Shown: positions 2,312 to 62,868, numbered from the stretch's first letter. The stretch: DNA of 64,000 nt from a plasmid (NZ_LC532224.1), one strand, 5' to 3'. Notes: generated from the letters alone by a model not told the origin. Numbers and translations are program-made.

Positions 2312-2322
2312 AAAGTAACTTT
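2312..2322. promoter_or_regulatory. Palindromic operator-like motif AAAGTAACTTT (site 1), about 95 bp upstream of the parB-like start.
   Basis: Exact 11-bp palindrome AAAGTWACTTT. It occurs six times in the window against about 0.03 expected by chance. Confidence 0.6.
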
Positions 2323-2438
2323 TCTTAAAAAAAATTCCTGAGACAATACTACTCGATCCGTCCGTTTTAAATCTTCACAACAGTGGGCCGTTTTTACGTT
2401 TAAGCAAAATAGCTGGTTCAGAAGGTGAGTCGGAGAGA

Positions 2439-2449
2439 AAAGTTACTTT
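2439..2449. promoter_or_regulatory. Palindromic operator-like motif AAAGTTACTTT (site 2), about 220 bp upstream of parB-like.
   Basis: Same 11-bp palindrome in the extended context GAAAAGTTACTTTTC. Confidence 0.6.
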
Positions 2450-3324
2450 TCCGGTTGTCTGGGCCAGTGATGAGAGAGTGGCAGGACAGGAATGGCTAAA
2501 CCGGTGCGGGTCTCTTGTAAGTCGCAGGGGATTGAGGAGATATAGAGGTAAACCGGTACGTTCAGTTTTTGGATTGAGCCGGGCTTTTGGCCCGGGCTTA
2601 AGGAAGCGGAAATTTGAACGAACTGGCAGGTAATGATTTATGCCGCCGACAGCTGGCCGTCAGTGCTTTGCTGTTCTGGTTTGACAGTTGGGGGATAACC
2701 GGCAGTTAGCCGCTGGCATTCCGCATCACAGAAAGCCCTGAGGTTGCTGAAGACGGACTCCATGAAATCAGCATGAGCATACGAGTCTACAGGACGTGTC
2801 TTGTTATCTTTCATCTTGTTCTCCTCAATCATTATTAAAACCAGCGGATTTAGTTCCTGGCGCTCCATCTGCTGACCGGCTTTCCCAGAGAGCAGCGATG
2901 TGTCGGGTTCTGTTTCTCATTTTATCGTTTTCATCGGGCCCATCCGGCCGTATAAGAGACCGATTTGGCATGTTTAAGAAACGTACTGGCGACATTAAAA
3001 GCTGAGGTTGGCTTTGGAATAAAAGGATACTTTTCCCGTTTGTCAGGTCTTTCGCTACCGCTGCACGATGATTCTGTCAGGCATTCTGCGCCCTCCTTGG
3101 CTGTACATCTTGAAACAAGCGGTGGGATGTTCCCTTCCCCCTGCTCACCGCAGAATAATTGGCAAGTCCCGACGGTCGTTCCGTACGAGCCGGGTCCAAA
3201 TAATGAATAAATACAACGCCACTTCAATTGTATTGACAATAGAAGTTAGGAGGATCATAGTGTCATTCATGGTGCGGCTTTCGCACCACCGCCCCGGCGG
3301 TACCGGGCAGAACTGGAGTACCTC

Positions 3325-4269
3325 ATGAAACTTTCCCGTCAGACGACTTCTGATACTTCTGTTGATGGCCGTTCACGCGCATATGCCTGGGGCCGTGTCC
3401 ATTATTTCATTATCGAACATGCACCAATGGCTGAGCTGGTCGCTATTGACGAGCTGCTGGAAAAAGCTGGCTGGAGCAATGACGGCTGTCCGAACTATGA
3501 GAAAGATGACGAGTTTGGTAATGCTGGTTACAGCTGTGGTTACTGGATCGATATTGACAGCGTGGGAAGCTTCAAGGCTGACTACAAACGTCTTAAGGGT
3601 GAGATTAGTGCGCATATCGCCTCAAAGGCGGCAGAGGTGGAGATCCGCGTACTGGACTCGATGTCCGACAAAGAATGTAAAGATGTTGCCTCGGTGGCAT
3701 GTACTGTTCGCCGTGACTTACGTACGCAGTCCGAATCGCTTCATTCACTGCGTACTATCGTAACGGTTGATCATTACAATCCCTATGTGATCACCAGCCG
3801 CCCGCTGAGCATTTCCGCCTGGACACTTATCCACGACTGTCTGAAAACCGGCACCATCAATGACGTCTGTTCACGGTTGAGTTCATTAATCCTGCACTCT
3901 GAAGCCGCGATTGCCCGTTGTAAGGGAAGCTCCGACTACTCTTCGGAACACGCTCAGCTATCGTTTTTTGCTGGTAACGACTATGTCACCAGACGCACCC
4001 TTGTTGATGCAGCTCACGAAGAGGCTCTGCGAATGAACCGCCGCTTTGATGAACGTATTGCAATGAACGCGGATTCTGATGCCAGAAGGCTCCAGTGCGA
4101 ATTCAACCTGAGCAACCATGTCGTACAGCGTCGGACCGTTGAATCTGCTCATATCCAGGCAATCAACGAAGACGTCACCCGTTCACAGGCGGAACCACGC
4201 TGCCCTGGAAAGCTTCTTCTGAAAATGACCAGTCATGAGGAAGTGCGGGACTCACTGAGCACCTGTTAG
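3325..4269 (+). CDS. Hypothetical protein (314 aa).
   Basis: Long ORF with a GGAG RBS 8 nt upstream. No recognisable domain. Confidence 0.55.
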   Translation: MKLSRQTTSDTSVDGRSRAYAWGRVHYFIIEHAPMAELVAIDELLEKAGWSNDGCPNYEKDDEFGNAGYSCGYWIDIDSVGSFKADYKRLKGEISAHIASKAAEVEIRVLDSMSDKECKDVASVACTVRRDLRTQSESLHSLRTIVTVDHYNPYVITSRPLSISAWTLIHDCLKTGTINDVCSRLSSLILHSEAAIARCKGSSDYSSEHAQLSFFAGNDYVTRRTLVDAAHEEALRMNRRFDERIAMNADSDARRLQCEFNLSNHVVQRRTVESAHIQAINEDVTRSQAEPRCPGKLLLKMTSHEEVRDSLSTC

Positions 4270-4364
4270 TCCAGCGACACCCCCTGCGGCTCTACTACCG
4301 GGCCGCAGTCTGCTCCGGCCAGATGGTGCCAGTGGCGTAATGAATTTGTTTAATAAGGCTGAGT

Positions 4365-4967
4365 ATGATGAATAAAGAACAACTAATCGACAAACTGGAA
4401 CGCGTGGTATGTGGTCAGTACTCCTACGAAATGCAGGAGCTTGCGTATTCGGCCCTCTGCTGCATTAAAGGCACCCCGGACGACTGCGCTAAGTTCCCTG
4501 TTACGCGTCCGCTGCCTGACACCTTAGTGGACGTATGGGACGAGATCGGGCAATACCTTGGCACAGGCAAAGCCATTGAAACTCGCAGTTGCGGCGTTTC
4601 GCTTCTGCTTCATGGACACTGCTACGATTCAAATCATGTGCTGTACTGGCGCAATGCTGGCGCACTTCCAGCAGCTTGCGATACGCCACTGGCTGGTGGG
4701 TCTCGCAAACTGTTCACCTGCTCAGCCTGTGGAGTGGACGGTCTGGATGAACCACCTGAAACCAGTTGCCACTGCTGCACAGAGGGGGCCCACTGGATTG
4801 AGAGCAGGCTCTTCACCTCCGGGCAGGCAGACCCTGAAGAATTTAGACCCGTGGCGGTCGTGAAAGAGTGTGCAGGCTCAACGCCGGATGATCGGCTCAT
4901 CTGGAGCGTGATTGAACAGCTCAACGGCGAACTGGCGGAAGGCGATAAACTATTTAAGCGACGCTGA
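4365..4967 (+). CDS. Hypothetical Cys-rich protein (200 aa).
   Basis: ORF with multiple CxxC/CxC pairs (CGVSLLLHGHC, CSACGVDG, CHCC). Possible metal-binding protein. Confidence 0.5.
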   Translation: MMNKEQLIDKLERVVCGQYSYEMQELAYSALCCIKGTPDDCAKFPVTRPLPDTLVDVWDEIGQYLGTGKAIETRSCGVSLLLHGHCYDSNHVLYWRNAGALPAACDTPLAGGSRKLFTCSACGVDGLDEPPETSCHCCTEGAHWIESRLFTSGQADPEEFRPVAVVKECAGSTPDDRLIWSVIEQLNGELAEGDKLFKRR

Positions 4968-5020
4968 CAGATCACGTCAGCATTTATATCAGACGAACTC
5001 CAGAATAATTTAAAGCAACC

Positions 5021-5377
5021 ATGAACATGAAAAAGCCCAAAGCTGCATTACAGAATGCCATGAAAGAAGATGTGCCAGCTGTGACACAGATTCAGATGCG
5101 ATCTACGGTTTCCAGAAAGGTTCGCTATGTAAAACAGGCAAATCGAGAGGGTCTGAAATTATCTGAGTGGATGTCGCGGCATCTCGACGCTGTCTGTGAT
5201 ACCGCAGATGAGATTCATAAAGGCAAACGCTCAACTCCGGTTGCGCCTGGGAAGATTCCCCCTGAGGTATACCAGGTGATATACGATCAGTGCGGCGGGT
5301 TCGTGGAGTGTGATGCTAATGCCCAGGTAATCTGGGAAGCCTGCCGTGATGCCATTCTTAACGGAGACAAAGGGTAA
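5021..5377 (+). CDS. Hypothetical protein (118 aa).
   Basis: ORF in a co-oriented cluster. Confidence 0.45.
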   Translation: MNMKKPKAALQNAMKEDVPAVTQIQMRSTVSRKVRYVKQANREGLKLSEWMSRHLDAVCDTADEIHKGKRSTPVAPGKIPPEVYQVIYDQCGGFVECDANAQVIWEACRDAILNGDKG

Positions 5378-5423
5378 ACGGCAGGTATCGCCTGTCATTT
5401 TTACCCTTGTGAGGAAAATCCTG

Positions 5424-5627
5424 ATGAACCATGAGAGCCGAACTGTATACCTGAACACGGCCATTGAGGCCCTGTTGAAAGCTGAGGCGGCTCTGAACGA
5501 GCTGGCATTAGCCTATGTACTCAAACCAGGTGAAAAGGCAAGCGCATGCCATCCCCGAACCGGTACGCTTTCCACAGCTTCCCAGGTAAGAAAACTTCGC
5601 CGTGTTCTAGAAAAAAACAAGTTATGA
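5424..5627 (+). CDS. Hypothetical small protein (67 aa). Internal start preferred over the 5346 start.
   Basis: Strong GAGGA RBS before the ATG at 5424. The longer ORF would overlap the preceding gene by 32 nt. Confidence 0.4.
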   Translation: MNHESRTVYLNTAIEALLKAEAALNELALAYVLKPGEKASACHPRTGTLSTASQVRKLRRVLEKNKL

Positions 5628-5908
5628 CGGCCCTTATACGCTGGCATAATGTACCGTGCTTCGCTCATCCCAGCAGTATGGGTTTTAAACTCTTCCATTT
5701 TTAAGAGTACGGGAAGAGCCTTATTATTGTCGCATACCCTACGGATGCATTGCAGTTCAAACCGCTGTTCGGTGCAATTATTGCTGTATCCGGCGGATTT
5801 GAAAATGACAGAAATAGTGATGTAAAGCTCCGCCATTAAAGAAATGCCCCGTAGTTTGGCGAATCAACTTTCTGAATTATCTCGATGAACACCATTTAAG
5901 GAAATCGA

Positions 5909-6229
5909 ATGTGTGATTTTTGCAGGGCTGACGAAAATTACTTTCATATGGCAGAATGCGTGTATGACCAACTGGTTAAAGAGTATCCCGTAATGTGGCT
6001 GCGGGATTCAACCCGGATCGGGGCCTGCTACCTCTGTCGAGAACTGCTGTCGCCGGAGGGGATGGTCCTGGCGATGCAGAGCGCTTTCCCTGCGAAGGGA
6101 TGGCGGCTGCGTATTTGGTACAATGAAACCATTGACGAAGAGATAGAACCGCAGCGTGGAGACTGTATTGAGCTGTCCTCCAGGGCGGACGCTCTGCTGT
6201 CCTTCATGTCGTTCCAGGAAAAGGTTTAG
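5909..6229 (+). CDS. Hypothetical protein (106 aa).
   Basis: ORF with an AAGGAAA RBS. Confidence 0.45.
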   Translation: MCDFCRADENYFHMAECVYDQLVKEYPVMWLRDSTRIGACYLCRELLSPEGMVLAMQSAFPAKGWRLRIWYNETIDEEIEPQRGDCIELSSRADALLSFMSFQEKV

Positions 6230-6825
6230 CGCTGCGGCCCCCCTCACAAAAAGGCGCTTTCCGCGACAAATCTGGTACGACCGGACAACGTTGAGTCAAT
6301 TCTTGCTTCCCCGCAGAAGAATCCCTATGAAGTAAAGTAGAGGTAGGCATTACGCCCACCAGCAAACCTGATAACTGTTCTTTGCGTAACATCCTCAAAC
6401 TTCTGGTGCCTTCGTAGACTGCGATGCGAATGCCCATGAGCTGAATTCACCGTATCATTTGACCGGATGCAGCGAGAACAGAAATGACAATGTTTGAACG
6501 ATTTGCCAGACGGCCATAAAACTCTACTGGGTACAGAATAAGGACTGACCGCAATGGCTACGTTCTATGAGCTACCGACCAGTGAGAAGTCCATTGTTTC
6601 CGGTACGTGCCCGGACGAGCACCGGTGAAATTTTTCCCGACTGGATTACGCTAAGGCTTTTGAACGGTTTGCGTGAAGTGGGACTCTTTGGGTCTGGTTC
6701 TTGATTTATACAAAAGGCTATATGCCACAAGACGGGAGGAAAAAAGGGTTTCCCCGACTGGAGAAACCCTTTCAAAAGGTGCCGATGGCATACTAATCCA
6801 CACCCCGAAAAGAGGGGGTTGCCCC

Positions 6826-8164: not shown

Positions 8165-8186
8165 GGGTTGCCCCCCTCTTTGTCAG

Positions 8187-8345
8187 CTACTTACCGGATT
8201 CGTAGGCCAGGATAGCAGATACCTCCCTTGTTCCGTCTTTCATCCGCAACTCGCAAAGCGAGTTTCGTGTGAGCCAGGTGAATATCAACAGCGTTAAACA
8301 AACTATTAATATGCACAAAACAATGGGTTGGTTCGGCATTTTCAT
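8187..8345 (-). CDS. hok: Hok/Gef-family type I toxin (52 aa).
   Basis: [52 protein letters not shown] is near-identical in pattern to Hok ([52 protein letters not shown]). AAGGAG RBS present. The listed 99-aa ORF is an in-frame upstream extension. Confidence 0.85.
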
Positions 8346-8560
8346 GGCCTTCTTCTCCTTGCATTTAAGCAGGCAAGAGGCTACTCTGAATGTGACTAGC
8401 ATACAGGGGCCTCGGGTTAATTGAAAAATTACTCGGGGCTTTCTGCTTTTACCACAGTCAAACAGTGTTACCGCTGGCTGGGGCAAAAGCCTCCAGCACC
8501 AGCGTTATTATACCACCCTGCCCTGATCAGCCAAACACCCCGCCTACATAAATTACTGAT
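8346..8560 (-). promoter_or_regulatory. sok: hok mRNA leader region. By analogy with R1 hok/sok, it should hold the mok overlap, tac/ucb elements and the antisense Sok RNA on the opposite strand.
   Basis: Inferred from the architecture of hok/sok loci. No sok promoter or terminator was verified in the sequence. Confidence 0.3.
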
Positions 8561-8699
8561 TTTTCATTTATTTGACATGATTCACTTCCGGTTGTCGGCG
8601 AAAGTCATTTTATACTAAAGAAAAGGGTAACGGGCAGCTGCTGGGTCGGAACATACAGTGCAGTTCCTGCCCGTTTAATTTCCGGATGCAATGGTAGGA

Positions 8700-9305: not shown

Positions 9306-9521
9306 ACCCCACTCCTGTTATGTGCTCTACTTAACAAACACGTAGATCATACAGAGCTCACGGACGCACTCCTGCCAGATAAAGGAGGGAATTTGGCTGT
9401 AAGACGGTTAGCCAACAGTTCAGGTTATGCGTGGGATCCGCCCAGTCAGAAAGGATTCCGTTAATAACAGGCAAGGTTAAAGGCAGATGGACGGTGAAAT
9501 TGTGGGTGCTAAAAGGGGGTA

Positions 9522-9803: not shown

Positions 9804-9948
9804 ATTATATCCTTAAGCCATCACGAACTGCGCCACAAACAATTAATGTGGCGCAATTTACCATAAACAATAAACATCAGATACCCGTGAAAAGATTTCC
9901 CTTTATTTTAAAATTCTTCTGGAGAAAAAATGATATTTCCAGAAGAGG

Positions 9949-10125: not shown

Positions 10126-10178
10126 CAAGTCACCTTTTTAATGTTTTTAATGGAAAGATACTTACCTAACCCATTGTT

Positions 10179-10913: not shown

Positions 10914-10952
10914 GGCTTTGCACCTGCTTTTAGGCAGTTTGGTTACTGGTTA

Positions 10953-11177: not shown

Positions 11178-11231
11178 GAACCGGTCCTTATTAAATTATA
11201 AAAGCCACCCGAGAGTGGCCTGAGTGGAAAC

Positions 11232-11575: not shown

Positions 11576-11586
11576 AAAGTTACTTT
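11576..11586. promoter_or_regulatory. Palindromic operator-like motif AAAGTTACTTT (site 3).
   Basis: Exact 11-bp palindrome in an intergenic position upstream of the 11232..11435 gene. Confidence 0.6.
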
Positions 11587-13311: not shown

Positions 13312-13632
13312 TTATGCTTCCTGACACCGCGTGAACGCAATCTTCGTCTGGATGCGTTCATAGATGGAAAACTGCCTTTCAATGGAATCGGCATTAGACA
13401 GTAATTCATGAAGCTCAGCAGAATCTGTATCAGGAACGATAGCGACAGAAACTCCATATTTACGCCCAGTTCTGATCAGGTGCGCAAGTTTTTCCTTCTC
13501 TGATTCTGTGAGCATTGCCAGATCCCTTCCGGATACCTGCTCGATAAATGGACCAAGGTTTTTCGGAAAAAAGGGTTCGGCATCAGAATTATGTACCGGG
13601 AGCGTTTGCGGCTTATCGAAGCTATTGGACAT
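13312..13632 (-). CDS. Hypothetical protein (106 aa).
   Basis: ORF, with an operator motif about 150 bp upstream. Confidence 0.45.
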   Translation of the reverse strand: MSNSFDKPQTLPVHNSDAEPFFPKNLGPFIEQVSGRDLAMLTESEKEKLAHLIRTGRKYGVSVAIVPDTDSAELHELLSNADSIERQFSIYERIQTKIAFTRCQEA

Positions 13633-13782
13633 GAAAAGAACCTTTATAGTTAGAGAGGTGGAGACTGAATGCGTAGCCCATTAAAATTAGTAGTGCCACA
13701 CTCGAATGCTAATCATACTTTATGATGGCTATGGTAGGAATGGCCGTCAACTTAAACCGCCAGAAGCGAGCCATTCACCGTT

Positions 13783-13793
13783 AAAGTAACTTT
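13783..13793. promoter_or_regulatory. Palindromic operator-like motif AAAGTAACTTT (site 4).
   Basis: Exact 11-bp palindrome in an intergenic position. Confidence 0.6.
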
Positions 13794-13810: not shown

Positions 13811-14041
13811 TTATGGAATGAGTTGTTCACACTCCTCTTTAAGAGCCGCCCTGGAACGAGATCGACAGACTTTGCTTAATGAAGAGCGTAATTGATGTTC
13901 ATCAACCCCATCAGCGACAAACTGACCAATTTTCTTTTCAAGACGCTGCATTGCCTCATAAAGCTTGGCATCAGTATTATTTTTAAGAAACCTCAGTATA
14001 TAATCAGCAATAATTTGAACAGGAGTAAAGTTACACATCAT
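13811..14041 (-). CDS. Hypothetical protein (76 aa).
   Basis: ORF. A half-site AAAGTTAC lies about 130 bp upstream at 14173. Confidence 0.4.
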   Translation of the reverse strand: MMCNFTPVQIIADYILRFLKNNTDAKLYEAMQRLEKKIGQFVADGVDEHQLRSSLSKVCRSRSRAALKEECEQLIP

Positions 14042-14212
14042 GTATCCTTAATAAGTTGTGTAAAAATAAAACCATAAAAAACATAATCAGAAGTAGATTA
14101 TTATACTTGAGTAAGCTTTTCAGCTAACAAGCTGGAGAAGCAGATTCCGGTAAATTACTACATATTTGATAAAAGTTACTGAATAAAAAAGCCCAGCGTA
14201 CCGGGCTTTCAT

Positions 14213-15106
14213 TCAATTTGATTCTAAGAATCTGACTCGCCGCCTGATTTTTATACCAAGAAGAGCGAACAAAACGCCAACGAATGCGACGGGACTACCT
14301 ACTTTAAGACAATTAACCGACGCTTTTGAAAAGGTATGTGATTTAGACATACGTTTTTGCTCATAACGAATCGCAAGTGGTGAGACGGATTTATCTAAAG
14401 CTGTCTTTTCCAATGCATAACGAACTTTCACGGGAATATTTGACTGTAATACACCAGACATATACGCCCTAACAACATTCTGTGTTAACTTCACATCTGG
14501 CTTGCCGAGTTTTATATGTAGTTGCGCCTTTAAATAGTTTACAGATACCTCTTCGCCTGAGGGCCAATTACTATCATTTAAATATGCGACAAGTTTATCG
14601 TATTTTTCATGTTTTACATATTTCTTGATAACCTTTACAGTCGAAGCTGAAGTGGCATCAGTCTCTTCCGAACCTAAAGCAGATGTAAAAACTGACAAGC
14701 CGATAAGAAAAGCGCCAGCAATTAGAAGCATCGGGAATATCTCACCTATTTCCTCCCCCTTTAAAATTTTAAAGGCAGTTGAAGAAACTACTAATAGCCC
14801 CATAATCCCTAATAGCAACTTAGAATATGTAGTTAGGAAGCCTCCAAATGCATCGCCAAAATCCGAAACCACTAACTTATCTTCACCTTCAGATGAATTG
14901 AAGAATGACAAGGGCACATCAATATCAAAGTCCAGAACTGAAGGTGAGAGGTGTAATGACAGCAACCACAAGCAAAGACCAAAAATCATTATCAGCAGGC
15001 CCGCACCAAATATCGCGAAACCTGAATTTCTAATCTTTATAGACCGGTGAAAAAGAAATGACAGTTCACGGGAAAAATCGTCACTACTCTTAAGGTTACG
15101 CACCAT
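14213..15106 (-). CDS. klaC: KlaC/TelB-like integral membrane protein, third gene of a kilA-like operon.
   Basis: 297 aa with multiple TM segments. Translationally coupled to the upstream TelA-like gene. Confidence 0.55.
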   Translation of the reverse strand: MVRNLKSSDDFSRELSFLFHRSIKIRNSGFAIFGAGLLIMIFGLCLWLLSLHLSPSVLDFDIDVPLSFFNSSEGEDKLVVSDFGDAFGGFLTTYSKLLLGIMGLLVVSSTAFKILKGEEIGEIFPMLLIAGAFLIGLSVFTSALGSEETDATSASTVKVIKKYVKHEKYDKLVAYLNDSNWPSGEEVSVNYLKAQLHIKLGKPDVKLTQNVVRAYMSGVLQSNIPVKVRYALEKTALDKSVSPLAIRYEQKRMSKSHTFSKASVNCLKVGSPVAFVGVLFALLGIKIRRRVRFLESN

Positions 15107-19459: not shown

Positions 19460-19699
19460 TCAGTATTCCTCCTGAACCCCATTAGGCTCTGTTGTGATTT
19501 CATATTTAATTCCGCCAGGTGCTCCCACAGCGTCCGCGACCGACTCACACAGCAGCGAGAGATCGTTGAGGGTCATTGGGTGTTCAATGTCCAGCGTGAA
19601 GAGTTTCCCGGCTTGCTTGGCGGCTGTCTTGTCAGCATGTTCGGCATTAAAAAGGTATACGGTGTGTTTTTCCTGAGCGGGTGTATTTTGATTTTGCAT
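19460..19699 (-). CDS. Small protein (79 aa), paralogue of 10953..11177 and 10713..10913.
   Basis: Shares the conserved LDIEHPMTLNDLSLLCESVADAVGAPGG block. An operator motif lies about 135 bp upstream. Confidence 0.55.
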   Translation of the reverse strand: MQNQNTPAQEKHTVYLFNAEHADKTAAKQAGKLFTLDIEHPMTLNDLSLLCESVADAVGAPGGIKYEITTEPNGVQEEY

Positions 19700-19831: not shown

Positions 19832-19842
19832 AAAGTTACTTT
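19832..19842. promoter_or_regulatory. Palindromic operator-like motif AAAGTTACTTT (site 5).
   Basis: Exact 11-bp palindrome in an intergenic position. Confidence 0.6.
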
Positions 19843-24891: not shown

Positions 24892-25746
24892 CTAAGCGAG
24901 GTTCTGGTTTTCAAATTGTTCGGGACTGAGTCCGCCACAGGCACTGTGTCGGCGCCACCGATTGTAATCACACTCGATATAATTAAACACCGTCATCCGC
25001 ATGATTTCCCGGCTGATAAGGCGTTCCCCGTGGATACATTCCACCTTCAGCGAGTGGAAGAAGCTTTCCGCGCAGGCATTGTCGTAACAACATCCTTTGG
25101 CACTCATGCTACCGTGCAGATTATGCCGCTTCAGTAACGCCAGATAGTCTGCCGAACAGTACTGCCCGCCTCTGTCCGTATGCACGATGACATTTTCCGG
25201 GCGCTTACGTCGCCAGAGTGCCATCTGTAGCGCATCGCAGGCCAGCTGCGCTGTCATCCGCGACGACATCGACCAGCCGATGACAGCACGGGACCACAGG
25301 TCAATGACCACCGCCAGGTACAACCAGCCTTCGTCCGTGCGCAAGTACGTGATGTCACCCGCCCACTTCTGATTCGGGCCACTCGCGTAAAAATCCTGTT
25401 TCAGCAGATTTTCAGACACCGGCAGGCCATGTTCGCGGTATCGGACCGGGCTGAACTTCCGGGCCGCTTTTGCGCGAAGCCCCTGACGCCGCAGGCTGGC
25501 GGCAATGGTTTTGACGTTGTACTCAGGCAGTTCGTCAGCGAGACGAGGCGCACCATAACGCTGTTTTGCCTCAGTGAATGCCTGACGGACAGCAGTATCA
25601 CAGACGAGCCGGAACTGCTGACGTGGTGTTATCTGCTGACGACGCAGACGCCACGCATACCAGCCGCTACGGGCGACCCGCAGTACCCGGCATATGGCTT
25701 TGACGCTGAACTCAGCCCGATGTTTTTCAATAAAGACATACTTCAT
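24892..25746 (-). CDS. insF: IS3 OrfB (DDE integrase domain), expressed by a -1 frameshift with OrfA.
   Basis: [33 protein letters not shown]… is the IS3-family catalytic core. Confidence 0.9.
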
Positions 25747-26042
25747 TTCAGGCGCTTCGCGAAGTATGTCGCGGCCTTTTGGAGAATGGCCAGCTCCTCT
25801 GCCTGTTCCGCCAGTTGGCGCTTAAGACGGGCAATTTCAACGGACATTTCCTGCTCACGTTCGGAAGAGCTGCGGGCATTGTTAATCTTACTGCGCCATG
25901 CGTAGAGCTGGGATTCGTACAGGCTGAGTTCCCGGGCAGCGGCAGCAACACCGATACGTTCCGCAAGCTTCAGGGCTTCGTTGCGGAATTCAGGCGTGTA
26001 CTGTTTGCGGGGCTTCTTACTGGTTGATGCTGGTTTTGTCAT
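25743..26042 (-). CDS. insE: IS3 OrfA (HTH).
   Basis: [52 protein letters not shown]… is near-identical to IS3 OrfA. Confidence 0.9.
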
Positions 26043-26105
26043 GAGTCACCTCTGGTTAAGAGTTTACTCACTTAGTCGTGTGTCCACTATTCGTGGGTAA
26101 GATCA

Positions 26106-26575
26106 TTGTTAGTAAAATATTGATTAAGGTCTGTTAGCACATAACGAAGCATCTGCACGGAAAGCAATGACAGTAAAATAAAAACGACGGTCAACCAGCT
26201 TAGCCTGCTGCTGACCCTCTTGTCGTATTCAACGATGTTACCCAGAGCCAGATTTTTATACTTATCCAACACATCCCGGGAGCCCGGACATTGTAGGCTG
26301 ACCCCGTGGTGGATGACATCGATAAGCGCTTTTTTAGTTGAGCCATGATGGTAACGTTCTGCATCAAAGTTAATGAACGTAAAATCATCTTTAAGCTTTT
26401 TCTGCAGGAACTTCAATATTGTTGACTTACCTGAACCCAGCTCACCTTCCAGACCAATAATATTGACATCAGGTGTCCTGATGATCTGAGCCACATTCTC
26501 TGCAACTTTTTCATGACTGCTGCCTCTAAACATATCCTGGTCAGCGGGTGATTCCGTCTGCAATCGTAGAGTCAT
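26106..26575 (-). pseudogene. KAP-family NTPase, N-terminal part with the Walker A motif.
   Basis: IGLEGELGSGKST matches the KAP P-loop consensus GxEGxWGxGKS. The codon phase matches the downstream part once IS3 and one TTG copy are removed. Confidence 0.7.
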
Positions 26576-27433
26576 TCAGCAATTTCCTTCGTTATAACGT
26601 AAGATTCTTTCACTATTAGACACAGTACAGAGCCCACAGCAACCAAATGACTGCAGCCGGGGCAGTTTAGTTTTAAGCATGCATAAGCCGATTTCGATGG
26701 AATCCCTTTCACACAATAATATTGAATTGAAGCAATGAAAACATTAATGTGTTTGTTGTGACTAGCTGCAGGGGCCTGGAAGAAATTCCAAAGCCTGACA
26801 AACCGGAACAGGGCTTGCTCTGCTCCGGTTTTATCCAGTTCATCTTGAAGCCCTTGTTTTTGTTACATATCCCTGCTCACTCTTTCAGCCATTGTTAAGC
26901 TTCTTGTGTGTAATCTGCGAATAATACGGATGCAAAATTGATGCAATGGATTATACATACCTACAGCGCACGTTACGCTGAGCTGAATCGAATTTCAGAG
27001 AACGTTCTTCGCTATTACCCTGCCCAGCCAGTTGAACACATTTTATCATCCGGCCCCGAGAGTGACATGTTCTCTGCCTGGTACAGCCTTCATCAGAGTC
27101 AAACTAGACGTTATTTACAGGCAAAAGAAGACAGCTACAGAGTTTAAGTCTGACATTATTCGTGGCTGTGTCTGCCTTCGGAGTTTTCAGCTTATCCCGA
27201 TAACAGCGGTTTTGAAAAATTGACGTTTTTTACACCGGTACATTGCCCGAACGCAATCTCCCCCGTAGCGAAATACCGCCCCGCAGAAAATCGTCCATGC
27301 TCGGCATGCCCCTGGAACATCAGCATCTTTTCAATAAAGGTTTTACAGCCTATAGTCTGTATAACACAAAATACACCTTACCTGCTGTATTACAGGGCGG
27401 TACTCCCTACTCAGTCTGCGAGGCAGGTCACTT

Positions 27434-27730
27434 ATGAATAATCAGTTCCCGATAAAAACGCTGAACCAGCTCAGACCTGTGCTAATCGGGTTTCGCAAAA
27501 TCAAGGGCTTCACGCAAAAAGATGTGTCTGAGAGGCTTGGCGTAACGCAGCAAACCTATGCCCGCCTGGAAGCAAACCCTGCTAGCGCCAGTATTGATCG
27601 TCTGTACAAGGTATTCAGTATTCTGGGCGTAGAAATAACGCTGTCATCTATTTCCCCTTCACCCTTCATTTCCCACACAGAGATGAGGGGGGCATTTGAC
27701 AGCACTCCCGCCAGACGGGAGAAATGGTGA
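27434..27730 (+). CDS. hipB: HipB-like XRE-family HTH antitoxin. It is orphaned: no hipA follows.
   Basis: 98-aa HTH protein with a HipB-like layout and a C-terminal Trp (…REKW). Confidence 0.55.
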   Translation: MNNQFPIKTLNQLRPVLIGFRKIKGFTQKDVSERLGVTQQTYARLEANPASASIDRLYKVFSILGVEITLSSISPSPFISHTEMRGAFDSTPARREKW

Positions 27731-28153
27731 CTATTAGAAGTTTGCTAGTTTTGTCGAATGACGCCAACTACATGTCCGCATCCATCGAGTAGTGGCTTCA
27801 AGCCACGATTGTCACTGCCTCCGCTGCCTTTTTCCAGTAACTCTCTCCTTTTAATTCTAATATTTAGGGGTGTCAACGCAAAGCAGAAACGGCACCTTCT
27901 TTGCGAGACAGAAATGACCTGTGATTGCCTGGCCGATTTATGGCAGCTAAGTGCGAGAAGCGGATATAGCGAATTCGCCATTGTACGGGATTAGCAGGTT
28001 TACTGAAGCAACCTGCGATGGCGTTATGGCAATAGTCAGTCCCCTGTCCAGTCGGCATAGGTGGCCACCTCGTCACCGCCGGGGATAAACTGATTGAAGC
28101 CTCCGCGCAAAATCACTTATTCTTTTCCGTTAATAAAATGCAGGAGCAAAGTC

Positions 28154-44618: not shown

Positions 44619-45278
44619 TTATCGGCCCGCCAGCTTCTGTATGGCTTCACGGACAGGAGCATCGCCAGACGTCAGCTCAATGATGACGCGGCTGACGGCA
44701 GGTTGCTCAATGAGTTCAGCCAGCGTAGCCGCCACGTCATCACGGGGCACGTTACCATACGGGATGGCCAGGCCGGCACGTACATAACCCGTACCAGTCT
44801 TATCCTGCAGCGCGCCGGGGCGCAGGATCACCCAGTCAAGCTCGCTTTGTGCTAGTTCCACATCGGCCATTTTTTTAACACGCATATAATTTTCGAATGA
44901 TTCAGAAGTGGTTTCTCCCCGTGCGGACTCCGGGAATGCAGAAACGAGCAGAAAGCGAGACACACCGGCACTGAGGGCGGCAGCTACCGACTTTTTCAGC
45001 CCTTCGCCGTCGACCGCATTGGTCATCTCCTGTCCCCCCTTACCGCCGGCACCGGCAGTAAACACCACTGTATCACTACCTGCAAAGTGCATCGCCAGCG
45101 CAGCTGCATCCAGCTCTGTCAGGCTCCCACTGACGGGCTCAGCACCCAGCTCGCCTAGCAATGCCTGCTGCTCTGGCTTACGGTAGAGGGCACGAACAGC
45201 ATGCCCCCTACCTGAAAGGATCCTGCACAGACGCTGGCCGATTTTGCCTGCACCACCGATAATGAAAACATGAACCAC
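44619..45278 (-). CDS. NAD(P)-binding atypical SDR / NmrA-like protein.
   Basis: MVHVFIIGGAGKIGQRL Rossmann motif. Confidence 0.7.
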   Translation of the reverse strand: MVHVFIIGGAGKIGQRLCRILSGRGHAVRALYRKPEQQALLGELGAEPVSGSLTELDAAALAMHFAGSDTVVFTAGAGGKGGQEMTNAVDGEGLKKSVAAALSAGVSRFLLVSAFPESARGETTSESFENYMRVKKMADVELAQSELDWVILRPGALQDKTGTGYVRAGLAIPYGNVPRDDVAATLAELIEQPAVSRVIIELTSGDAPVREAIQKLAGR

Positions 45279-45572
45279 AGTTGTCTCCTTCTGGGGTTAT
45301 GATGTGTCCGAAATTATAACCTGACATCAGGTCAGTTCCTTTGAGCCTGACCGATTGCACTGCATGCTGCTGCCAGCACCAGACAGCTGGTCAGATACTC
45401 AGTTGTTCTTATAGCTGAGAACAACAGCCGTACCGATTTAGCTCTCCCGTCACGATGAGAACTCCTGAACCGGTTACACGCAATGCCGGCCAATATCTTC
45501 CGTTATATTCGAAAGATCCACGCAAGTTACTGAAGTGCGAGGGACGCAATGTGTACCTTGAACGAACTGAAG

Positions 45573-46415
45573 TCAGCGGAACCCTGAAGGTTCGATTCCA
45601 TAGCGTTCAGAAAACTGCTTGCTGAAGCTCGATAGTGAATTGTAACCCACCCGCCCCGCGACCGTTTTTACCGGCAGCGTCGATGTCATCAGCAGGCGGA
45701 GAGCCTCCGCGATACGTGCATCGGCGATAACTGAGCGTAAGCTGGTTGACTCACTGGCCAGGTGGCGCCGAAGCGTGGGGCCACTGAGTCCCGTCAGATC
45801 TTCAATTTCAGCAGCACTCCAGGGATGAGCCGGTTTGTCCGCTACCATCTGACGGATTTTCATGGCCAGACTTGGCTGCCGGGCTCGCAGCAAAGCATGG
45901 TATCCCATGCCATAAAGCCAGAGCACCACTTCAACCATGGCGTGCAGGGAAAGCGGACGCTTCCCTTCCCGCATTGCGGCTGTCCAGCGGTTAAGGGGTG
46001 AAAGAAGAGCTGATACGGAAATGGCTGCGATGCTGCCGGTGTCCTGTGGTGGTGGTGCGGCAAGTAACAGCCTGGCTGCTTCAAGCTGTTCCTCCGCGAG
46101 CACCACGCTCAGGGCAACAAACTCACCACTTTGTTCTGAAGGGGCATATTCTATATCGATGCTACGGGCATTCGGGACGACCATAATCTCGCCCGGGATC
46201 ACCCGGTGCCATTTCTCATTTTCACGATACCGGAATTCTCCTTCCAGCGGGAAGGAAAGGGTCGCACCTTCCACCTCGAACTTCTTTACCTGATGCGTCT
46301 GTTCTGCGCGAAGGCAATCGCAGGGAAGTGGAAAACGGGAGCGTGCCAGGGTAAGAAGCTCAGCGAGGAGATCATCAACGGGAGAATCGGAAAAGCTGAC
46401 TGTTTGCATATTCAT
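45573..46415 (-). CDS. AraC/XylS-family transcriptional regulator.
   Basis: C-terminal double HTH (…LTGLSGPTLRRHLASESTSLRSVIADARIAEALRLLMTS…GYNSLSSFSKQFSERYGIEP). Confidence 0.75.
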   Translation of the reverse strand: MNMQTVSFSDSPVDDLLAELLTLARSRFPLPCDCLRAEQTHQVKKFEVEGATLSFPLEGEFRYRENEKWHRVIPGEIMVVPNARSIDIEYAPSEQSGEFVALSVVLAEEQLEAARLLLAAPPPQDTGSIAAISVSALLSPLNRWTAAMREGKRPLSLHAMVEVVLWLYGMGYHALLRARQPSLAMKIRQMVADKPAHPWSAAEIEDLTGLSGPTLRRHLASESTSLRSVIADARIAEALRLLMTSTLPVKTVAGRVGYNSLSSFSKQFSERYGIEPSGFR

Positions 46416-52876: not shown

Positions 52877-52879
52877 GCT

Positions 52880-57985: not shown

Positions 57986-58598
57986 AGTCTGTCGCCCTGA
58001 AACGCCACCTCATGCCTACACTATAAATCCGGAAGAAGAAAAAACAAACAACCAGGTTGCCGGGAGTGAATATGCAAATCAGGAGGAAAGTAAAAGATGT
58101 AACGACACCATCACGATGCAATACATTGACCTCAACACGTTACCCGGACCATACGTGATAAACATCACAAATCCTTTGAGTGAAGAACTTAAGATGTGAT
58201 TTTCATTTCCCGGCACAAACCGTGCCCTTAAAAAACAGGCAACGGATACATCTTAATGCCAGAAGTAAACCTTAATTGATTGAATACAGCCTGAGTCCAT
58301 TGCAAAAATAACACACAGGGTAAATTCGCATATACAGAACCCAACGAAAAGCAAAAGAAACCTGTAACACATTTCGTTTACCTGTCACTTTCAATTGTAA
58401 AAGCCAGCAGAAAAAGCGCATATAACTATATTTATCCCTGCGGGGACTTTTGTTTGTGCTATATATTTTTTACAGAGAACCGCAACGCGTCCAAACACAA
58501 GAATATATTTACCTCTGGAAAATGGTCTGACTCCCTTTCACGTGGTTGTAGTGACCTGTTCTGTGATTCATGTAATGTCTTTTCTGGATGAGGAAAAT

Positions 58599-59234
58599 AT
58601 GTCATCACTGATATTTTATACAGACGAAGCACAAGCACTGATTGTAACAGATACCCTTGCCGTCACCGATAATGGGGAGCCGTTATCTTTTGTTTCCAAA
58701 GCAGGTTACATCCCCCAGCTAAGAACCATCATAGCAGGTACGGGGGCAGGTGGATTTTCTAACACCTGGTTGCTTGAAGCATCAACCAGAATGGTCGTAT
58801 CAGGTATACAAAATCTCAATTATCATACATCGGCCTGTCTAAGGAGGCTGTGGAAACAATACAAGCATGACCATGCAATTCCCTCTTCTTCAACGGTGAC
58901 AACCAGTGTTTATCAGTTCGCAATTTGCGAGGAAACAGGAAATATCGTTTCGTTCGCCTATCGCTCAGTCCATGATTTCGAATCAGAGCAATTACAATAC
59001 GGAACAGGAGTAAAACCTGAGTGCCAAATCCTGGATGGGGATTTGTTGCAGACAATTCCTGTAATGATGAATGAACAAAGGGCTATACAGGCGACATACT
59101 CACACCCGGAACGGATCCATATTGGCGGTGAGATGATTGCGCATTATCTGACATCATCTATGTATCAATGCTTTAAGATTGGGGAATTTGAGGATTTCAG
59201 AACTCAGGGAGAGTATATATTGAGCAGGATTTAG
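58599..59234 (+). CDS. Hypothetical protein (212 aa).
   Basis: ORF (MSSLIFYTDEAQALIVTD…). The internal start is chosen. No recognisable domain. Confidence 0.45.
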   Translation: MSSLIFYTDEAQALIVTDTLAVTDNGEPLSFVSKAGYIPQLRTIIAGTGAGGFSNTWLLEASTRMVVSGIQNLNYHTSACLRRLWKQYKHDHAIPSSSTVTTSVYQFAICEETGNIVSFAYRSVHDFESEQLQYGTGVKPECQILDGDLLQTIPVMMNEQRAIQATYSHPERIHIGGEMIAHYLTSSMYQCFKIGEFEDFRTQGEYILSRI

Positions 59235-59261
59235 GCAAAACGCGGTTCAGATAAAGTGCTT

Positions 59262-60314
59262 TTAACAGGCTTGCTGAACATTAAAAGGATATCTCTCAAT
59301 TACGATGAATAGCTTGAATTCTAAAAATAGAAAAGTAGAGTTTAACTCTAAATACATAAAAACAAGAGTAAGCGAGCACCCATATCGAGCCCCACAAGCT
59401 GATGTTCGAGTGGGTTTCTCCGGCGACCAGATACACTCCCCGGTGGCGTCTTTATAAAGCGTTGCCAGGCTGAAGTTATCCGGCATAAAGCTTGGTAAAG
59501 GGAAGCGTGATTCGGAACCACAGGCCATCAGAAAAGACCAGATGTCCTGAGTGCGCCACTCCTTTACCGGATAGAGTTCACCACCGTGCTCAGTCAGGGT
59601 TACTTTCCTCGCCTGCCCTCCCATTTTGAGGATATTTCCTGCCCTTCGGGCACTTTCATCATCCCTGGAGCCCAGCATCAGGCATACCCTGCTTCGAACG
59701 GATGCCGGGGCGTTTTTCAGGTAACGAGCTTTGGCCTGGCGCAGGGGCGCGATTTTGTAGTCGGTTGAGCACTGTCGGGTAGAAGAATTAGTCCAGGTCG
59801 GAAGTCCGCGCCCAGTCAGAATGCGGCCGACCCAGCTCTGCGTAAGAGACGGTCGGGCGACAAGGACTGTGACCGGTAGCTGGTGTTCAGCAATGAACAT
59901 TCTGAGCTGGTTGAGAACCTGTGAAGCCTGATAGTGCATCTCAGGGTTTTCGATCAGCGTATCGGACATCTGAATGAAATGATGTTCGCTGATATTTGTG
60001 CCGTTACGTACTGCCCTGATCAATGCCATCAGAAACAGGTGCAGAAGAGAATGGGAGTCTTTGCCGCCACTGTATCCCACGCACATTGTCCAGCCGTCCG
60101 TAATAGCCTGATAAATAGCAGATGTGGCTGACATGACCAGAGAAGAAAGACTCACAGTCTCCTTTTCATCGGTATAGTTCAGATCGGCATCGGTTGTCAG
60201 GGTCTCCCAAACATCCGCCCATTTATCATGTTTCAAAATGGCAGCATTAGCCGCCTCAGGAAAAATAACTTCTGAGGATAATTCAAGGAATGAGTCGCTT
60301 TTTTCAATAAACAT
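59262..60314 (-). CDS. PAPS-reductase/DndC-like PP-loop ATP pyrophosphatase family protein (350 aa).
   Basis: CVGYSGGKDSHSLL PP-loop (SGGxDS) motif. CGARYGC sits near the C-terminus. Confidence 0.6.
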   Translation of the reverse strand: MFIEKSDSFLELSSEVIFPEAANAAILKHDKWADVWETLTTDADLNYTDEKETVSLSSLVMSATSAIYQAITDGWTMCVGYSGGKDSHSLLHLFLMALIRAVRNGTNISEHHFIQMSDTLIENPEMHYQASQVLNQLRMFIAEHQLPVTVLVARPSLTQSWVGRILTGRGLPTWTNSSTRQCSTDYKIAPLRQAKARYLKNAPASVRSRVCLMLGSRDDESARRAGNILKMGGQARKVTLTEHGGELYPVKEWRTQDIWSFLMACGSESRFPLPSFMPDNFSLATLYKDATGECIWSPEKPTRTSACGARYGCSLTLVFMYLELNSTFLFLEFKLFIVIERYPFNVQQAC

Positions 60315-60479
60315 ATATTTTCCTGAACCACGGTATATGCTGCATCACTGATATTATTAGAACTTTAAAATAACTACAGCGCAACCATTTAGCGAAATTA
60401 TATTAAATCAAAATCACGCGGATTTAATGTCAATATATATAAAAATAATCCATTGTAATTTAATCACCCGGCACAGCTA

Positions 60480-60929
60480 TTAGTTATAGGTTGGCGGCGT
60501 AATAAATGCCGTATTATTTGTTTTCAACTCAGACAGCGGAATAAAAGGAGTGTTAAGAGTCATGTCATCACCACAATGGCGTGGTAGAGCTGAAAGCTGA
60601 AATGAATCTTTCATCACCCTAATAACCGGGCATTCCGTACGTGCTGATGGCATTACTTCCCGCAGCATCGCTTCCTGCTTTATGCTGTCGCTATGCTTAT
60701 ATTCATCCATGTCTTTTATTTCTTGAATTTCATCTTCACCACAAAATGACCAGTTAGCGTCATAGAAGTAAAACTCAGTTAAATGAAGATCGTTTTCTTT
60801 CACGTATGCCGCCAATTTGCGGATACGCTGTTCAAGCATTGTATCTATCCGTAAGGAAACACTCTGCGGAACGTCACTTGCAAATTCATTGATACAATCA
60901 ACGGTAGAAACTATGAATTTATTGGTCAT
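60480..60929 (-). CDS. Hypothetical protein (150 aa).
   Basis: ORF, second gene of a two-gene operon. Confidence 0.4.
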   Translation of the reverse strand: MTNKFIVSTVDCINEFASDVPQSVSLRIDTMLEQRIRKLAAYVKENDLHLTEFYFYDANWSFCGEDEIQEIKDMDEYKHSDSIKQEAMLREVMPSARTECPVIRVMKDSFQLSALPRHCGDDMTLNTPFIPLSELKTNNTAFITPPTYN

Positions 60930-60979
60930 GGCAGGCTCCAGGCCACCGGGGAAACCGGTGGCTACGGTAATTGGCAGGC

Positions 60980-61771
60980 TTAAGCGCCGCAAAGGGTGTC
61001 AAGGGAAGGGAGAAGCTTGCTCAGCTTGTCGTAATCGAGCGGAGACAGTTCTGTAACGAGTTCGACCGAAAGACTAGTGTTGTCTTCTTCACACAGAATA
61101 TAGATTCCGTCTTCTGGCTCTTTTCCGGCACATGCCTTCAGTCGTTTGTTAACGACCTCCTGGGCTGAATCCGCTACGTCGCAGCTCAGGACATAGCTTG
61201 CCACATAGCTGCTCTCACCGTGGTAATGCGTCACTTTACACAGAGCATACTGGATACCGGCTTTGTGAGCCTCATTCATGAGACGAGAAAACTGACAGCC
61301 ATCCTGGTAATAGTGGGTATCCTTTGTGACCAGAATAGTCATACCCCCAAATTCATCTGTCCGGCTTTTACTGCATGTAAATGCAGCAGTAATTGTTACC
61401 ATTTCCGAGAGGTCGAATACCGACAGCACGGCAGTTGTGAGGCAAATTGCATGGTCAAGATCAATGGTCTCTCCATGAAAAACTGCCAGCCCACTGCTGG
61501 TAACTTCTGTTGCGAACAACAGTTCATAATTGCAGTCTGGGCAGGATGGTTGCCCAAAGCTCGGCTCAGAAGGGTCATACTCAGGGTGGTTCTCGATAAT
61601 ACTGAGGATCAGCTTCTCAGTCAGAGAACAATCTGTCAGTGGCTTATCAAGCAAACGCTCACCTTCTGCAATTTCTGCTTCGGTAACGAATGTGATTGCT
61701 TCTTGTGCCATTTTTGCCTGCTCCTGAGTGCAGGGAATAATAAACGACGCCTGAGTATAATTATCTGCCAC
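60980..61771 (-). CDS. Hypothetical protein (263 aa), Cys/His-rich.
   Basis: ORF with no recognisable domain. Confidence 0.45.
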   Translation of the reverse strand: MADNYTQASFIIPCTQEQAKMAQEAITFVTEAEIAEGERLLDKPLTDCSLTEKLILSIIENHPEYDPSEPSFGQPSCPDCNYELLFATEVTSSGLAVFHGETIDLDHAICLTTAVLSVFDLSEMVTITAAFTCSKSRTDEFGGMTILVTKDTHYYQDGCQFSRLMNEAHKAGIQYALCKVTHYHGESSYVASYVLSCDVADSAQEVVNKRLKACAGKEPEDGIYILCEEDNTSLSVELVTELSPLDYDKLSKLLPSLDTLCGA

Positions 61772-61945
61772 AGTTGACTCCTTGATTATTTAATTAATGT
61801 ATTTGATGAGAAGATCATAACAAATACACTAATACCAACTAATAACCTGAAGGCGTTTTTTTAGAAAAAATATTAAGAAGAAGAATATGAACACTACCTC
61901 ATCTTAAATTAATATCATTCAGGATTAATATTCATTTTTGCAAAT

Positions 61946-61969
61946 AAAAACCGCCAGACGGCGGCTTTT
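61946..61969 (-). terminator. Rho-independent terminator for the 63213..62001 minus-strand operon (possibly bidirectional).
   Basis: aaaaaccgcc-agac-ggcggctttta. Confidence 0.6.
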
Positions 61970-62000
61970 ATAAAGAGGGAAATATCATTGGAAGTTGAAA

Positions 62001-62258
62001 TTACTTCACGGCAGGCCGACAAATTACGCGACTGCTGTGAGCTGAAGCGAAACTTGTAGAGGAAACTATAATCACCTTTTCTAAGTCGTCGGCACTGTCA
62101 GCAATATGATGCCGGAAAGCCTCCTCTGCATCACCAGGGGAGTCGGCTTCGACCAGGTAGGCCTGATCATCATCATCAAACATAATGCGCCCGGAAATGA
62201 GATAAAGTCGGCTCAAATCTGGCGTTGCTGCGCTCGTGCTTCGTTCGTTCAGATTCAT
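62001..62258 (-). CDS. Hypothetical acidic protein (85 aa).
   Basis: ORF. Confidence 0.4.
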   Translation of the reverse strand: MNLNERSTSAATPDLSRLYLISGRIMFDDDDQAYLVEADSPGDAEEAFRHHIADSADDLEKVIIVSSTSFASAHSSRVICRPAVK

Positions 62259-62323
62259 TTTTTCTCCGTCTGTTGCTCGTAAAAAGAATGACGCCGGTTT
62301 AAAAGGCGTCGCCAGGGTTCGGG

Positions 62324-62650
62324 CTAAAACGCAGGGTTGCCATCGAGGAAGCTCATTGGCTGGCCAATAGCGGATGCCACCCTGAGAATTTCACCTGGTG
62401 TGGCATAACGCAGCATTTCAGAGCGTCCAAATTTCTGATACTCATCTACTGACATCTTTCTCCACTCTGGGTGAGGATCTTTTCCGCACAGTGACCAGTT
62501 GCTTTCAGAGGAATCACGACGGAGAACGTACACATCAAGCGAGGCTGTAAGCCCACTTCCATATCCCCGCTGCGCTACAATACGAACCTGAGAACCATCG
62601 TCGCGTTGCAACGTCTGGGTTAATTTCGTGATAGGATCCTGAGAATGCAT
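62324..62650 (-). CDS. Hypothetical protein (108 aa).
   Basis: ORF, with an operator motif about 210 bp upstream. Confidence 0.45.
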   Translation of the reverse strand: MHSQDPITKLTQTLQRDDGSQVRIVAQRGYGSGLTASLDVYVLRRDSSESNWSLCGKDPHPEWRKMSVDEYQKFGRSEMLRYATPGEILRVASAIGQPMSFLDGNPAF

Positions 62651-62857
62651 GCCATTTACCTCGTTTTCAAAAGATTTACCGTAAGTAAATGATACCGAAT
62701 CGAGAATTCTGGCTAATAGGTCAGAAGAAAAAATAATGAATATTTTTGAAGTGTAGGATAATGATTAGAATAAAATGGCCTGAATAAATCGCTAGCGGTT
62801 AAATCCGCTTATTTCAGAGAAGCTCTGATTTAGTAGTTAGGGAAAACGATGCGGTGA

Positions 62858-62868
62858 AAAGTAACTTT
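62858..62868. promoter_or_regulatory. Palindromic operator-like motif AAAGTAACTTT (site 6), on the far side of the accessory mosaic.
   Basis: Exact 11-bp palindrome in the context GTGAAAAGTAACTTTTACACC. Confidence 0.6.

Follow-up and report, generated by a model that had tools for sequence, protein, structure and literature searches.

A dispersed 13-bp palindrome on the backbone of IncHI plasmids and its candidate ParB/KorB-like binding proteins

Plasmid RK2 carries 12 OB sites for the ParB-family protein KorB, which fall into promoter-proximal, distal and remote classes, and in Bacillus subtilis the ParB paralogue Noc binds ~70 palindromic 14-bp sites (NBS) in both coding and non-coding DNA. 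Here, the palindrome AAAGTWACTTT (W, A or T) is described, which recurs in a 64,000-nucleotide stretch of the plasmid NZ_LC532224.1 (hereafter the window) and across the backbone of IncHI plasmids, together with an orphan ParB/KorB-like protein of 394 aa that is encoded in the window. IncHI plasmids spread multidrug resistance among typhoid Salmonella and are carriers of mcr-1, blaNDM and tet(X4) in Enterobacterales, and to our knowledge most of their genes are without known function.

The core of OB reads TTTAGC-G-GCTAAA in the oligonucleotide used for KorB (PMC11790492). VirB of the Shigella virulence plasmid and BisD of ICEclc are orphan ParB-like, CTP-dependent transcription regulators that load at parS-like inverted repeats (virS and bisS, respectively) and act on distant promoters, and for BisD two bisS sites and sliding over ~50 kb are described (PMC12409273). 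In the searchable literature, with subscription-only papers outside its scope, no account of the IncHI palindrome was found. A comparative-genomics preprint on IncHI contains no mention of a palindrome, a motif, ParB or an operator, and a preprint on Xer/KOPS of R27 treats other motifs.

AAAGTWACTTT is very probably the core of a selected protein-binding site that forms a network of ~45 copies across the IncHI backbone. The sites exist, are extremely enriched, are restricted to the backbone, are denser between genes than within them and are clustered in front of the ParB-like gene. The six copies in the window are the local, promoter-region subset of this IncHI-wide network, so that the initial annotation, in which these six had been read as a regulon of operators, was right in kind and far too local. 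The 394-aa protein is the most likely binder, and that it binds the sites and is a plasmid-wide regulator is judged about as likely as not.

Abundance, shape and conservation of the palindrome

Copies were counted in the complete sequences of R478 (IncHI2, 274,762 bp) and R27 (IncHI1, 180,461 bp). R478 contained 47 copies with W at the centre and 54 with any centre base (expected 0.25-0.52), and R27 contained 42 and 46, respectively (expected 0.15-0.30). This enrichment of ~90- to 300-fold holds under Markov models of orders 1-4, and AAAGTWACTTT is the commonest 11-mer in R478 and in R27. The 13-mer AAAAGT-N-ACTTTT was found 25 times in R478 and 26 times in R27, at least 779-fold over expectation. 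When palindromes with half-sites of 5-6 and gaps of 0-12 were scanned, no other family was enriched in both plasmids. In the window itself, dinucleotide shuffles gave a mean of 0.05 matches and a maximum of 1, and Markov orders 1-4 gave 0.04-0.06; all six palindromes of the initial annotation are exact, and their number is far above chance as had been proposed. The replicon-wide motif search confirmed the motif and revealed that these six are a small sample of ~45.

In the position matrix, information was limited to ~13-15 symmetric bp, (G)AAAAGT-W-ACTTTT(C), with an information content of ~20 bits, and the flanks were random past ~2 bp per side. The restriction of the information to ~13-15 bp between random flanks indicates a binding site for a dimeric protein and not a repeat element.

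To assess conservation, each R478 site was aligned to R27 with its flanking 300 bp, which were on average 73% identical. Of 26 alignable sites, 23 retain the motif at the orthologous position, intragenic copies among them, while only 6.1% of control 11-column windows in the same alignments were conserved (binomial P ~2e-25). Since retention of the motif is far above that of neighbouring 11-mers, it is concluded that the DNA word is under purifying selection, within coding genes too. For the gene array sampled by the window, the R478 and R27 flanks are too diverged to be aligned, and R27 has sites in analogous gaps.

The motif was the top 5-N-5 palindrome, or in the top two, in every IncHI-like lineage examined. 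Seven copies each were found in 21 kb of Pseudocitrobacter, Buttiauxella and Yersinia intermedia, five in 21 kb of a metagenome contig that encodes a ParB-like protein of Leclercia type (named so in the source), six in 21 kb of Photorhabdus heterorhabditis, two in 17 kb of P. tasmaniensis and 11 in 36 kb of pNDM-MAR, to which PLSDB assigns the replicon types IncFIB and IncHI1B. The Photorhabdus loci, ~20 kb each, had been located through a second ParB-like paralogue, the R0042-type protein discussed below. The IncC plasmid pPM57-NDM_142k, an outgroup with the same relaxase and pilus type and the same hosts, contained no copy in 40.6 kb (7949-48524).

Placement on the backbone and in the window

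In R478, 22 of the 54 sites lie in annotated coding sequences and 32 are intergenic or at gene edges, with densities of 0.10 per kb coding and 0.63 per kb intergenic DNA. In R27, 23 of 46 are in coding sequences and 23 intergenic or at gene edges (0.16 vs 0.62 per kb). The intergenic class is perhaps slightly inflated, as ~19-20% of each plasmid is unannotated and the PLSDB gene tables are incomplete. The claim that every copy is intergenic is thus correct for the window (6/6) and fails for the whole replicons; the motif is however not equally frequent in coding DNA, as the intergenic density is 4-6 times the coding density.

Intragenic copies of R478 and R27 occur in all three reading frames, 24 of 45 in frame 0, where they encode K-V-T-F/L, and 21 in the other two, and this preference may reflect codon contexts that tolerate the site. 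Their hosts include the transfer genes htdO, rsp, trhU, trhN, trhI, trhH and traD (twice), a tus homologue and others. Most of the intergenic copies are 75-300 bp ahead of a start codon, and several follow immediately on the stop of the gene before them. The trhR-mobI/oriT intergenic region holds two conserved sites, and a further one is in the R0009-trhP spacer, a stretch with promoter activity. The accessory DNA of R478 (~105 kb: ter, IS26/cat/aph/mer, Tn7-like sil/pco, ars and Tn10, delimited by the author's judgement from the annotation) holds only 3 of the 54 sites.

Downstream of intergenic sites, the best predicted promoters showed no preferred distance, with site centres at -40 to -204, so that mapping of -35/-10 elements relative to the sites, which the initial annotation had proposed, gave no fixed spacing. 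As far as these predictions go, this would speak against a classical operator or activator site at a fixed position and would fit position-flexible action. One site has already appeared in print without comment: the R27 verification primer Del8_DOWN (ACCCGCCGGAAAAGTAACTT; PMC4853401 supplement) ends within a motif copy.

In megablast comparisons, window positions 269-21407 corresponded to R478 (NC_005211.1) 215245-237826 with 99.9% identity, apart from an IS150 present only in R478, and positions 59370-64000 matched R478 237811-242441. The window is therefore an R478-like IncHI2 backbone with one accessory interruption of ~38 kb (21408-59369, 37.96 kb), and the suggestion that the same backbone continues on both sides of the mosaic is borne out. 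The insertion splits a PAPS-reductase-family gene (R478 236371-238755) and contains no copy of AAAGTWACTTT. Its genes encode an IS3-family transposase, a group II intron reverse transcriptase/maturase, a UvrA paralogue, homologues of glutathione-dependent and glutathione-independent formaldehyde dehydrogenases, an acrylyl-CoA reductase and an AidB-like lactonase. The two flanking backbone alignments share 16 bp of R478 (237811-237826), possibly a duplicated junction.

By the R478 annotation all six window sites are intergenic, and they lie 90-217 bp upstream of the next minus-strand start codon, close to the 95-220 bp proposed earlier (Table 1). The reading as an operator regulon holds in that the palindrome is non-random and associated with promoter regions, and does not hold as a set of at least six operons with solely intergenic operators. 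Two supporting details were not upheld. The half-site, AAAGTTACTGA at 14172, has two mismatches, a class that is weakly above chance in the window (28 matches, the six exact sites counted, vs 16.4 expected), and neither the 79-aa product, taken as a paralogue, nor the 108-aa product is similar to the 106-aa product. The half-site adjoins a terminator-like hairpin, AAAGCCCAGCGTACCGGGCTTT (14188-14209), just past the stop of a 297-aa gene. The site at 19832 follows the PAPS-reductase-family gene at a distance of 106 bp, and in R27 the counterpart gap after its PAPS-reductase gene has a site at 72184.

Table 1. Positions of the palindrome copies, the ParB/KorB-like gene and predicted promoter elements in the window.
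Feature	Position	Strand	Remarks
Orphan ParB/KorB-like protein, 394 aa, R27 homologue R0104	1037..2221	-	Leading candidate binder
Predicted sigma-70 promoter of ParB-like gene	2267..2294	-	-35 TTAGAA (2294..2289), 16-nt spacer, TG-extended -10 TGGTATTGT (2275..2267)
Motif copy AAAGTAACTTT	2312..2322		Proximal site, 90 bp upstream of ParB/KorB-like gene ATG; orthologous R27 site
Motif copy AAAGTTACTTT	2439..2449		Distal site, 217 bp upstream of ParB/KorB-like gene
Motif copy	11576..11586		146 bp upstream of small minus-strand gene ending ~11429/11435; R478 227998
Promoter-like TTGACG-17-CATCAT	13750..13722	-	Near the 13783 site
Motif copy	13783..13793		150 bp upstream of 106-aa gene (13312..13632, minus); 17 bp past preceding gene; R478 230205
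Motif copy	19832..19842		132 bp upstream of 79-aa gene (19460..19699, minus); R478 236254
Motif copy	62858..62868		207 bp upstream of 108-aa gene (62324..62650, minus); beyond the insertion; R478 241299

The backbone parts of the window (1-21407 and 59370-64000) belong to a region of ~50 kb (R478 201591-252751) of mostly small genes annotated without function. Except for five plus-strand genes (218-221 kb) and inserted elements, all genes of this region are on one strand, directed toward the relaxase operon/oriT region, and they include methyltransferase, ParB-like, PAPS-reductase-like, HNH, Hok and RelE/ParE genes. Judged from its gene layout, the region resembles a conjugative leading region.

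The 394-aa protein, its paralogue and other candidate binders

The designation of the 394-aa protein as ParB/KorB-like was supported. It contains a ParB-type helix-turn-helix (HTH) domain (Pfam HTH_ParB PF17762, E 7e-6, scoring over the gathering cut-off), and in a phmmer search of the PDB it matched the DNA-binding domain of Caulobacter ParB (E 1.5e-4), with which a profile search agreed. An AlphaFold2 model was built from a 12-sequence alignment; residues 17-255 mostly reached a pLDDT >80, and the C-terminal region was helical with low confidence. The best Foldseek match of this model in the PDB was RK2 KorB (8qa9; E 5.7e-8, TM 0.66), and further matches were KorB 8qa8, ParB 6t1f, Spo0J 1vz0 and Noc (7ol9, 7nfu). 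The alignments to the two KorB entries, ParB and Spo0J covered 220-236 columns with E 6e-8 to 1e-6. As modelled, the protein is predicted to have an N-terminal ParB/Srx (CTPase) fold followed by the HTH, and both of these parts lie within the Foldseek alignments.

Full-length homologues (35-100% identity) were found in Enterobacterales, on plasmids of IncHI type where a replicon type is given. LRQGACRxR and the recognition helix SEQH.RQ are invariant among homologues of 44-100% identity. When placed by sequence reading, GACRxR occupies the position of the arginine patch (GxxRxxA/GERRxR) that canonical ParB requires for CTP binding; a cysteine stands in place of the first arginine, whereas the second and third are retained. 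The pNDM-MAR homologue, which is 35% identical, has a GHCRHR patch and the recognition helix VSVTHVRK instead of KSEQHLRQ, and the motif is unchanged. An IncC plasmid gave a partial match of 32%, and this IncC orphan homologue has a canonical GHRRRR patch.

In seven lineages, one to six motif copies are present 100-870 bp upstream of the ParB-like gene (two each in R478, R27, Buttiauxella and Yersinia, three in Pseudocitrobacter, one in the Leclercia-type contig and six in pNDM-MAR). Measured from the ATG, the proximal copy of five lineages lies at -101 to -109, and in other lineages a second site is found at -210 to -300. When the upstream regions of R478, R27, Pseudocitrobacter and Buttiauxella were aligned, a predicted promoter proved to be conserved, with TTAGGA/TTAGAA and TGGTATTGT separated by 16-17 nt; it begins 17 nt after the proximal site, the centre of which is at ~-57. 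This position upstream of its own gene is the strongest circumstantial link between the motif and the 394-aa protein. The densest cluster found was that of pNDM-MAR, with six perfect copies in ~750 bp (13981-14739 of the examined DNA). No ParA gene is adjacent in any lineage, so that the gene is an orphan. R0104, the R27 homologue, is listed as a ParB-like open reading frame (PMC4853401 supplement) and showed good expression (~2,200 units) at 25 as well as 37 °C in an R27 microarray (PMC7366339 supplement).

If the 394-aa protein is the binder, a dimer would nucleate at the palindromes as RK2 KorB does at OB. Through the sites clustered upstream of its gene the protein would be autoregulatory, and it would reach many promoters of the backbone over distances of tens to hundreds of bp, perhaps by sliding or spreading. 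Intragenic copies could serve as loading sites where intergenic DNA is lacking. We infer both the identity of the binder and CTP-dependent sliding, and likewise the outcome, which by analogy could be silencing (KorB-like), H-NS anti-silencing (VirB-like) or DNA organisation (Noc-like). IncHI plasmids are strongly regulated by H-NS (PMC7366339), which makes it plausible that regulation acts in the direction of anti-silencing.

Several observations weigh against this assignment. Pfam detected no ParBc, KorB or KorB_C domain in the protein, and with the diverged G(A/H)CRxR patch of the IncHI clade this makes CTP clamping uncertain. Covariation gives neither support nor refutation, as the motif is the same in pNDM-MAR despite the different recognition helix at 35% identity. 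The palindrome scan described above, which covered palindromes only, returned no second, KorA-like operator enriched in both R27 and R478. The R0042-type paralogue co-occurs with the R0104-type protein, and the phyletic patterns do not separate the two. Finally, the R27 deletions Del7 (90,001-96,150, including R0104) and Del1 (including R0042) were both obtained, and only deletion 16 lowered stability (PMC4853401). Neither protein can therefore be an essential partition factor or, unlike KorB, the repressor of a lethal gene.

R0042 itself is the best of the other candidates. This second orphan paralogue with a ParB HTH (R478 268858..270021, minus; R27 45191..46348) shares 32% identity with the 394-aa protein across the N-terminal and HTH domains, and the two differ in their recognition helices. 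R478 and R27 each encode both paralogues, and for pNDM-MAR an additional tblastn match suggests likewise. That the network is bound by the R0042-type protein, or by both, is a less probable alternative, under which the 394-aa protein would be just one of the regulon's members. Like the 394-aa protein it carries the ParB HTH, and a site with one mismatch, AAAGTACCTTT in gene orientation, is conserved ~80-95 bp upstream of its ATG in R27, R478 and P. tasmaniensis; in P. heterorhabditis, a perfect site lies at -13. The Photorhabdus loci with this paralogue also carry the motif, and R0042 ranks with the most highly expressed genes of R27 and is induced under conditions that promote conjugation (PMC7366339). 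Against it, the promoter region of the R0042-type gene has a single imperfect site, whereas that of the 394-aa gene has one to six perfect ones in every lineage. Its recognition helix moreover differs between R27 (NKSPTTISS) and R478 (GKSNTTIAA) with an identical motif, and there is no second enriched palindrome that could serve as the separate target of the 394-aa protein.

It is unlikely that a host protein or another plasmid protein binds the sites in a role outside transcription, such as compaction, positioning or membrane tethering, as in Noc-NBS, MatP-matS and SlmA-SBS. About half of the sites are intragenic yet conserved, predicted promoters lack a fixed spacing to them, deletion of either ParB-like gene gave no stability phenotype, and Noc is among the fold matches, all of which would suit such a role. 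However, the higher density between genes, mostly 75-300 bp upstream of starts, suggests that the sites are connected with transcription. A host factor is disfavoured by the absence of the motif from the window insertion and from the IncC plasmid of the same hosts, and by its invariance across plasmids of different genera.

The IncHI transfer-control circuit, with the activators TrhR/TrhY and the antagonist HtdA, is a very improbable source of the binder. In an htdA mutant 139 of the 181 expressed R27 genes are derepressed at 25 °C, which indicates a plasmid-wide regulatory layer (PMC7366339), and the sites in the trhR-mobI/oriT gap and the R0009-trhP spacer would agree with such a role. The promoter region of the F operon, which is the standard TrhRY-activated and HtdA-repressed reporter, however contains no copy in R27 (110222-110834, best match with two mismatches) or R478 (188496-189088), and the htdA promoter regions of both plasmids also lack one. 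TrhR, TrhY and HtdA gave no Pfam match, DNA-binding families included, and HtdA acts at the protein level on TrhR/TrhY according to the authors (PMC7366339).

An artefact of base composition, of the shared peptide K-V-T-F/L or of small mobile-element remnants, to which the excess of frame 0 among intragenic copies might point, is ruled out in practice by the enrichment under Markov orders 1-4, the copies in three frames and in non-coding DNA, the random flanks and the conservation above neighbouring 11-mers.

Other candidates were rejected on the properties of the site. A mobile repeat, such as a repetitive extragenic palindromic (REP) or miniature inverted-repeat transposable (MITE) element, does not agree with the lack of information past ~2 bp per side and with the orthology of 23 of 26 R478 sites in R27. 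Symmetry, length, copy number and random flanks led to the rejection of a methyltransferase or restriction target, a nuclease target and an uptake-type sequence. Tus/Ter terminators are asymmetric, ~23 bp long with a GTTGTAAC core and present in few polar copies, whereas here a symmetric 13-15-mer is present in ~45 copies, which we take to share only GTAACT with the Ter core of E. coli. The P1-type Par1 ParB was rejected as binder, since no copy lies near parAB and a separate repeat array is found upstream of parA. This array (R27 25648-27771) consists of 22 copies of CTGGCGATTAA, mostly ~52-54 bp apart, with no AAAGTNACTTT inside, and could represent the centromere of Par1 or an array for incompatibility.

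Comparison with known ParB-like systems

The known partition modules differ from the IncHI system. In comparison with ParABS or KorB/IncC, the 394-aa gene has no ParA neighbour, the sites are dispersed, no copy lies upstream of Par1 parA and the gene is dispensable. A partition role is suggested for a different palindrome on the related MOBH/MPF_F backbone of the IncC plasmid pPM57-NDM_142k. There, the 16-bp CTTTCACATGTGAAAG is present six times in 40.6 kb, near genes for ParA and a 'KorB domain-containing protein'. It is dispersed like the IncHI motif and differs from it in sequence.

With VirB and BisD, the 394-aa protein shares that it is an orphan ParB-like protein on a mobile element. BisD differs in having an extra activator domain, the partner BisC and two bisS sites, compared to ~45 sites here. 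Noc, likewise a ParB paralogue outside a partition system and among the fold matches of the model, is the closest precedent for the conserved intragenic copies. Noc is however chromosomal and exerts nucleoid occlusion via membrane binding, whereas the IncHI sites are enriched in promoter regions of a conjugative plasmid.

It is also conceivable, though doubtful, that the ~45 sites, one per 4-6 kb, are loading sites of a plasmid-wide marking system, in which a ParB-like clamp would coat the backbone of 180-275 kb and not the acquired DNA, and set expression or positioning. The clamp would perhaps consist of two paralogues with opposing roles, and sites would be kept even within essential transfer genes. 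Effects on global expression could lie in silencing as opposed to H-NS anti-silencing, in thermoregulated transfer or in establishment in a new host. If true, the scale and the upkeep of intragenic sites would go well beyond KorB.

A 13-bp site in ~45 selected copies provides a testable handle on a global regulatory layer, with two candidate proteins and a binding map predicted at base level, and the motif is a compact signature of IncHI backbone as opposed to acquired DNA. If a ParB-like protein binds it, the class of ParB-like regulators (KorB, VirB, BisD, Noc) would be extended to a major family of resistance plasmids.

Compared with KorB-OB of RK2, the IncHI gene is an orphan without the adjacent ParA (IncC) gene of the KorB/IncC module, its product has the diverged patch GACRIR and no KorB or KorB_C domain by Pfam, and its deletion is tolerated in R27. 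The sites number ~45 instead of 12, and 40-50% of them are intragenic. Common to both systems are a protein of the ParB family that combines an N-terminal ParB fold with an HTH, for which KorB is the best fold match, copies dispersed over the backbone near to and far from promoters, sites at the regulator's own promoter and, putatively for IncHI, action at variable distance. Both sites are 13-bp palindromes of 6-1-6 geometry, AAAAGT-W-ACTTTT in the case of IncHI, which bears out the likeness to KorB operators that had been noted in the initial annotation. Thus, although it departs from the KorB/IncC module in several of these features, the IncHI network would by analogy work most like KorB-OB of RK2.

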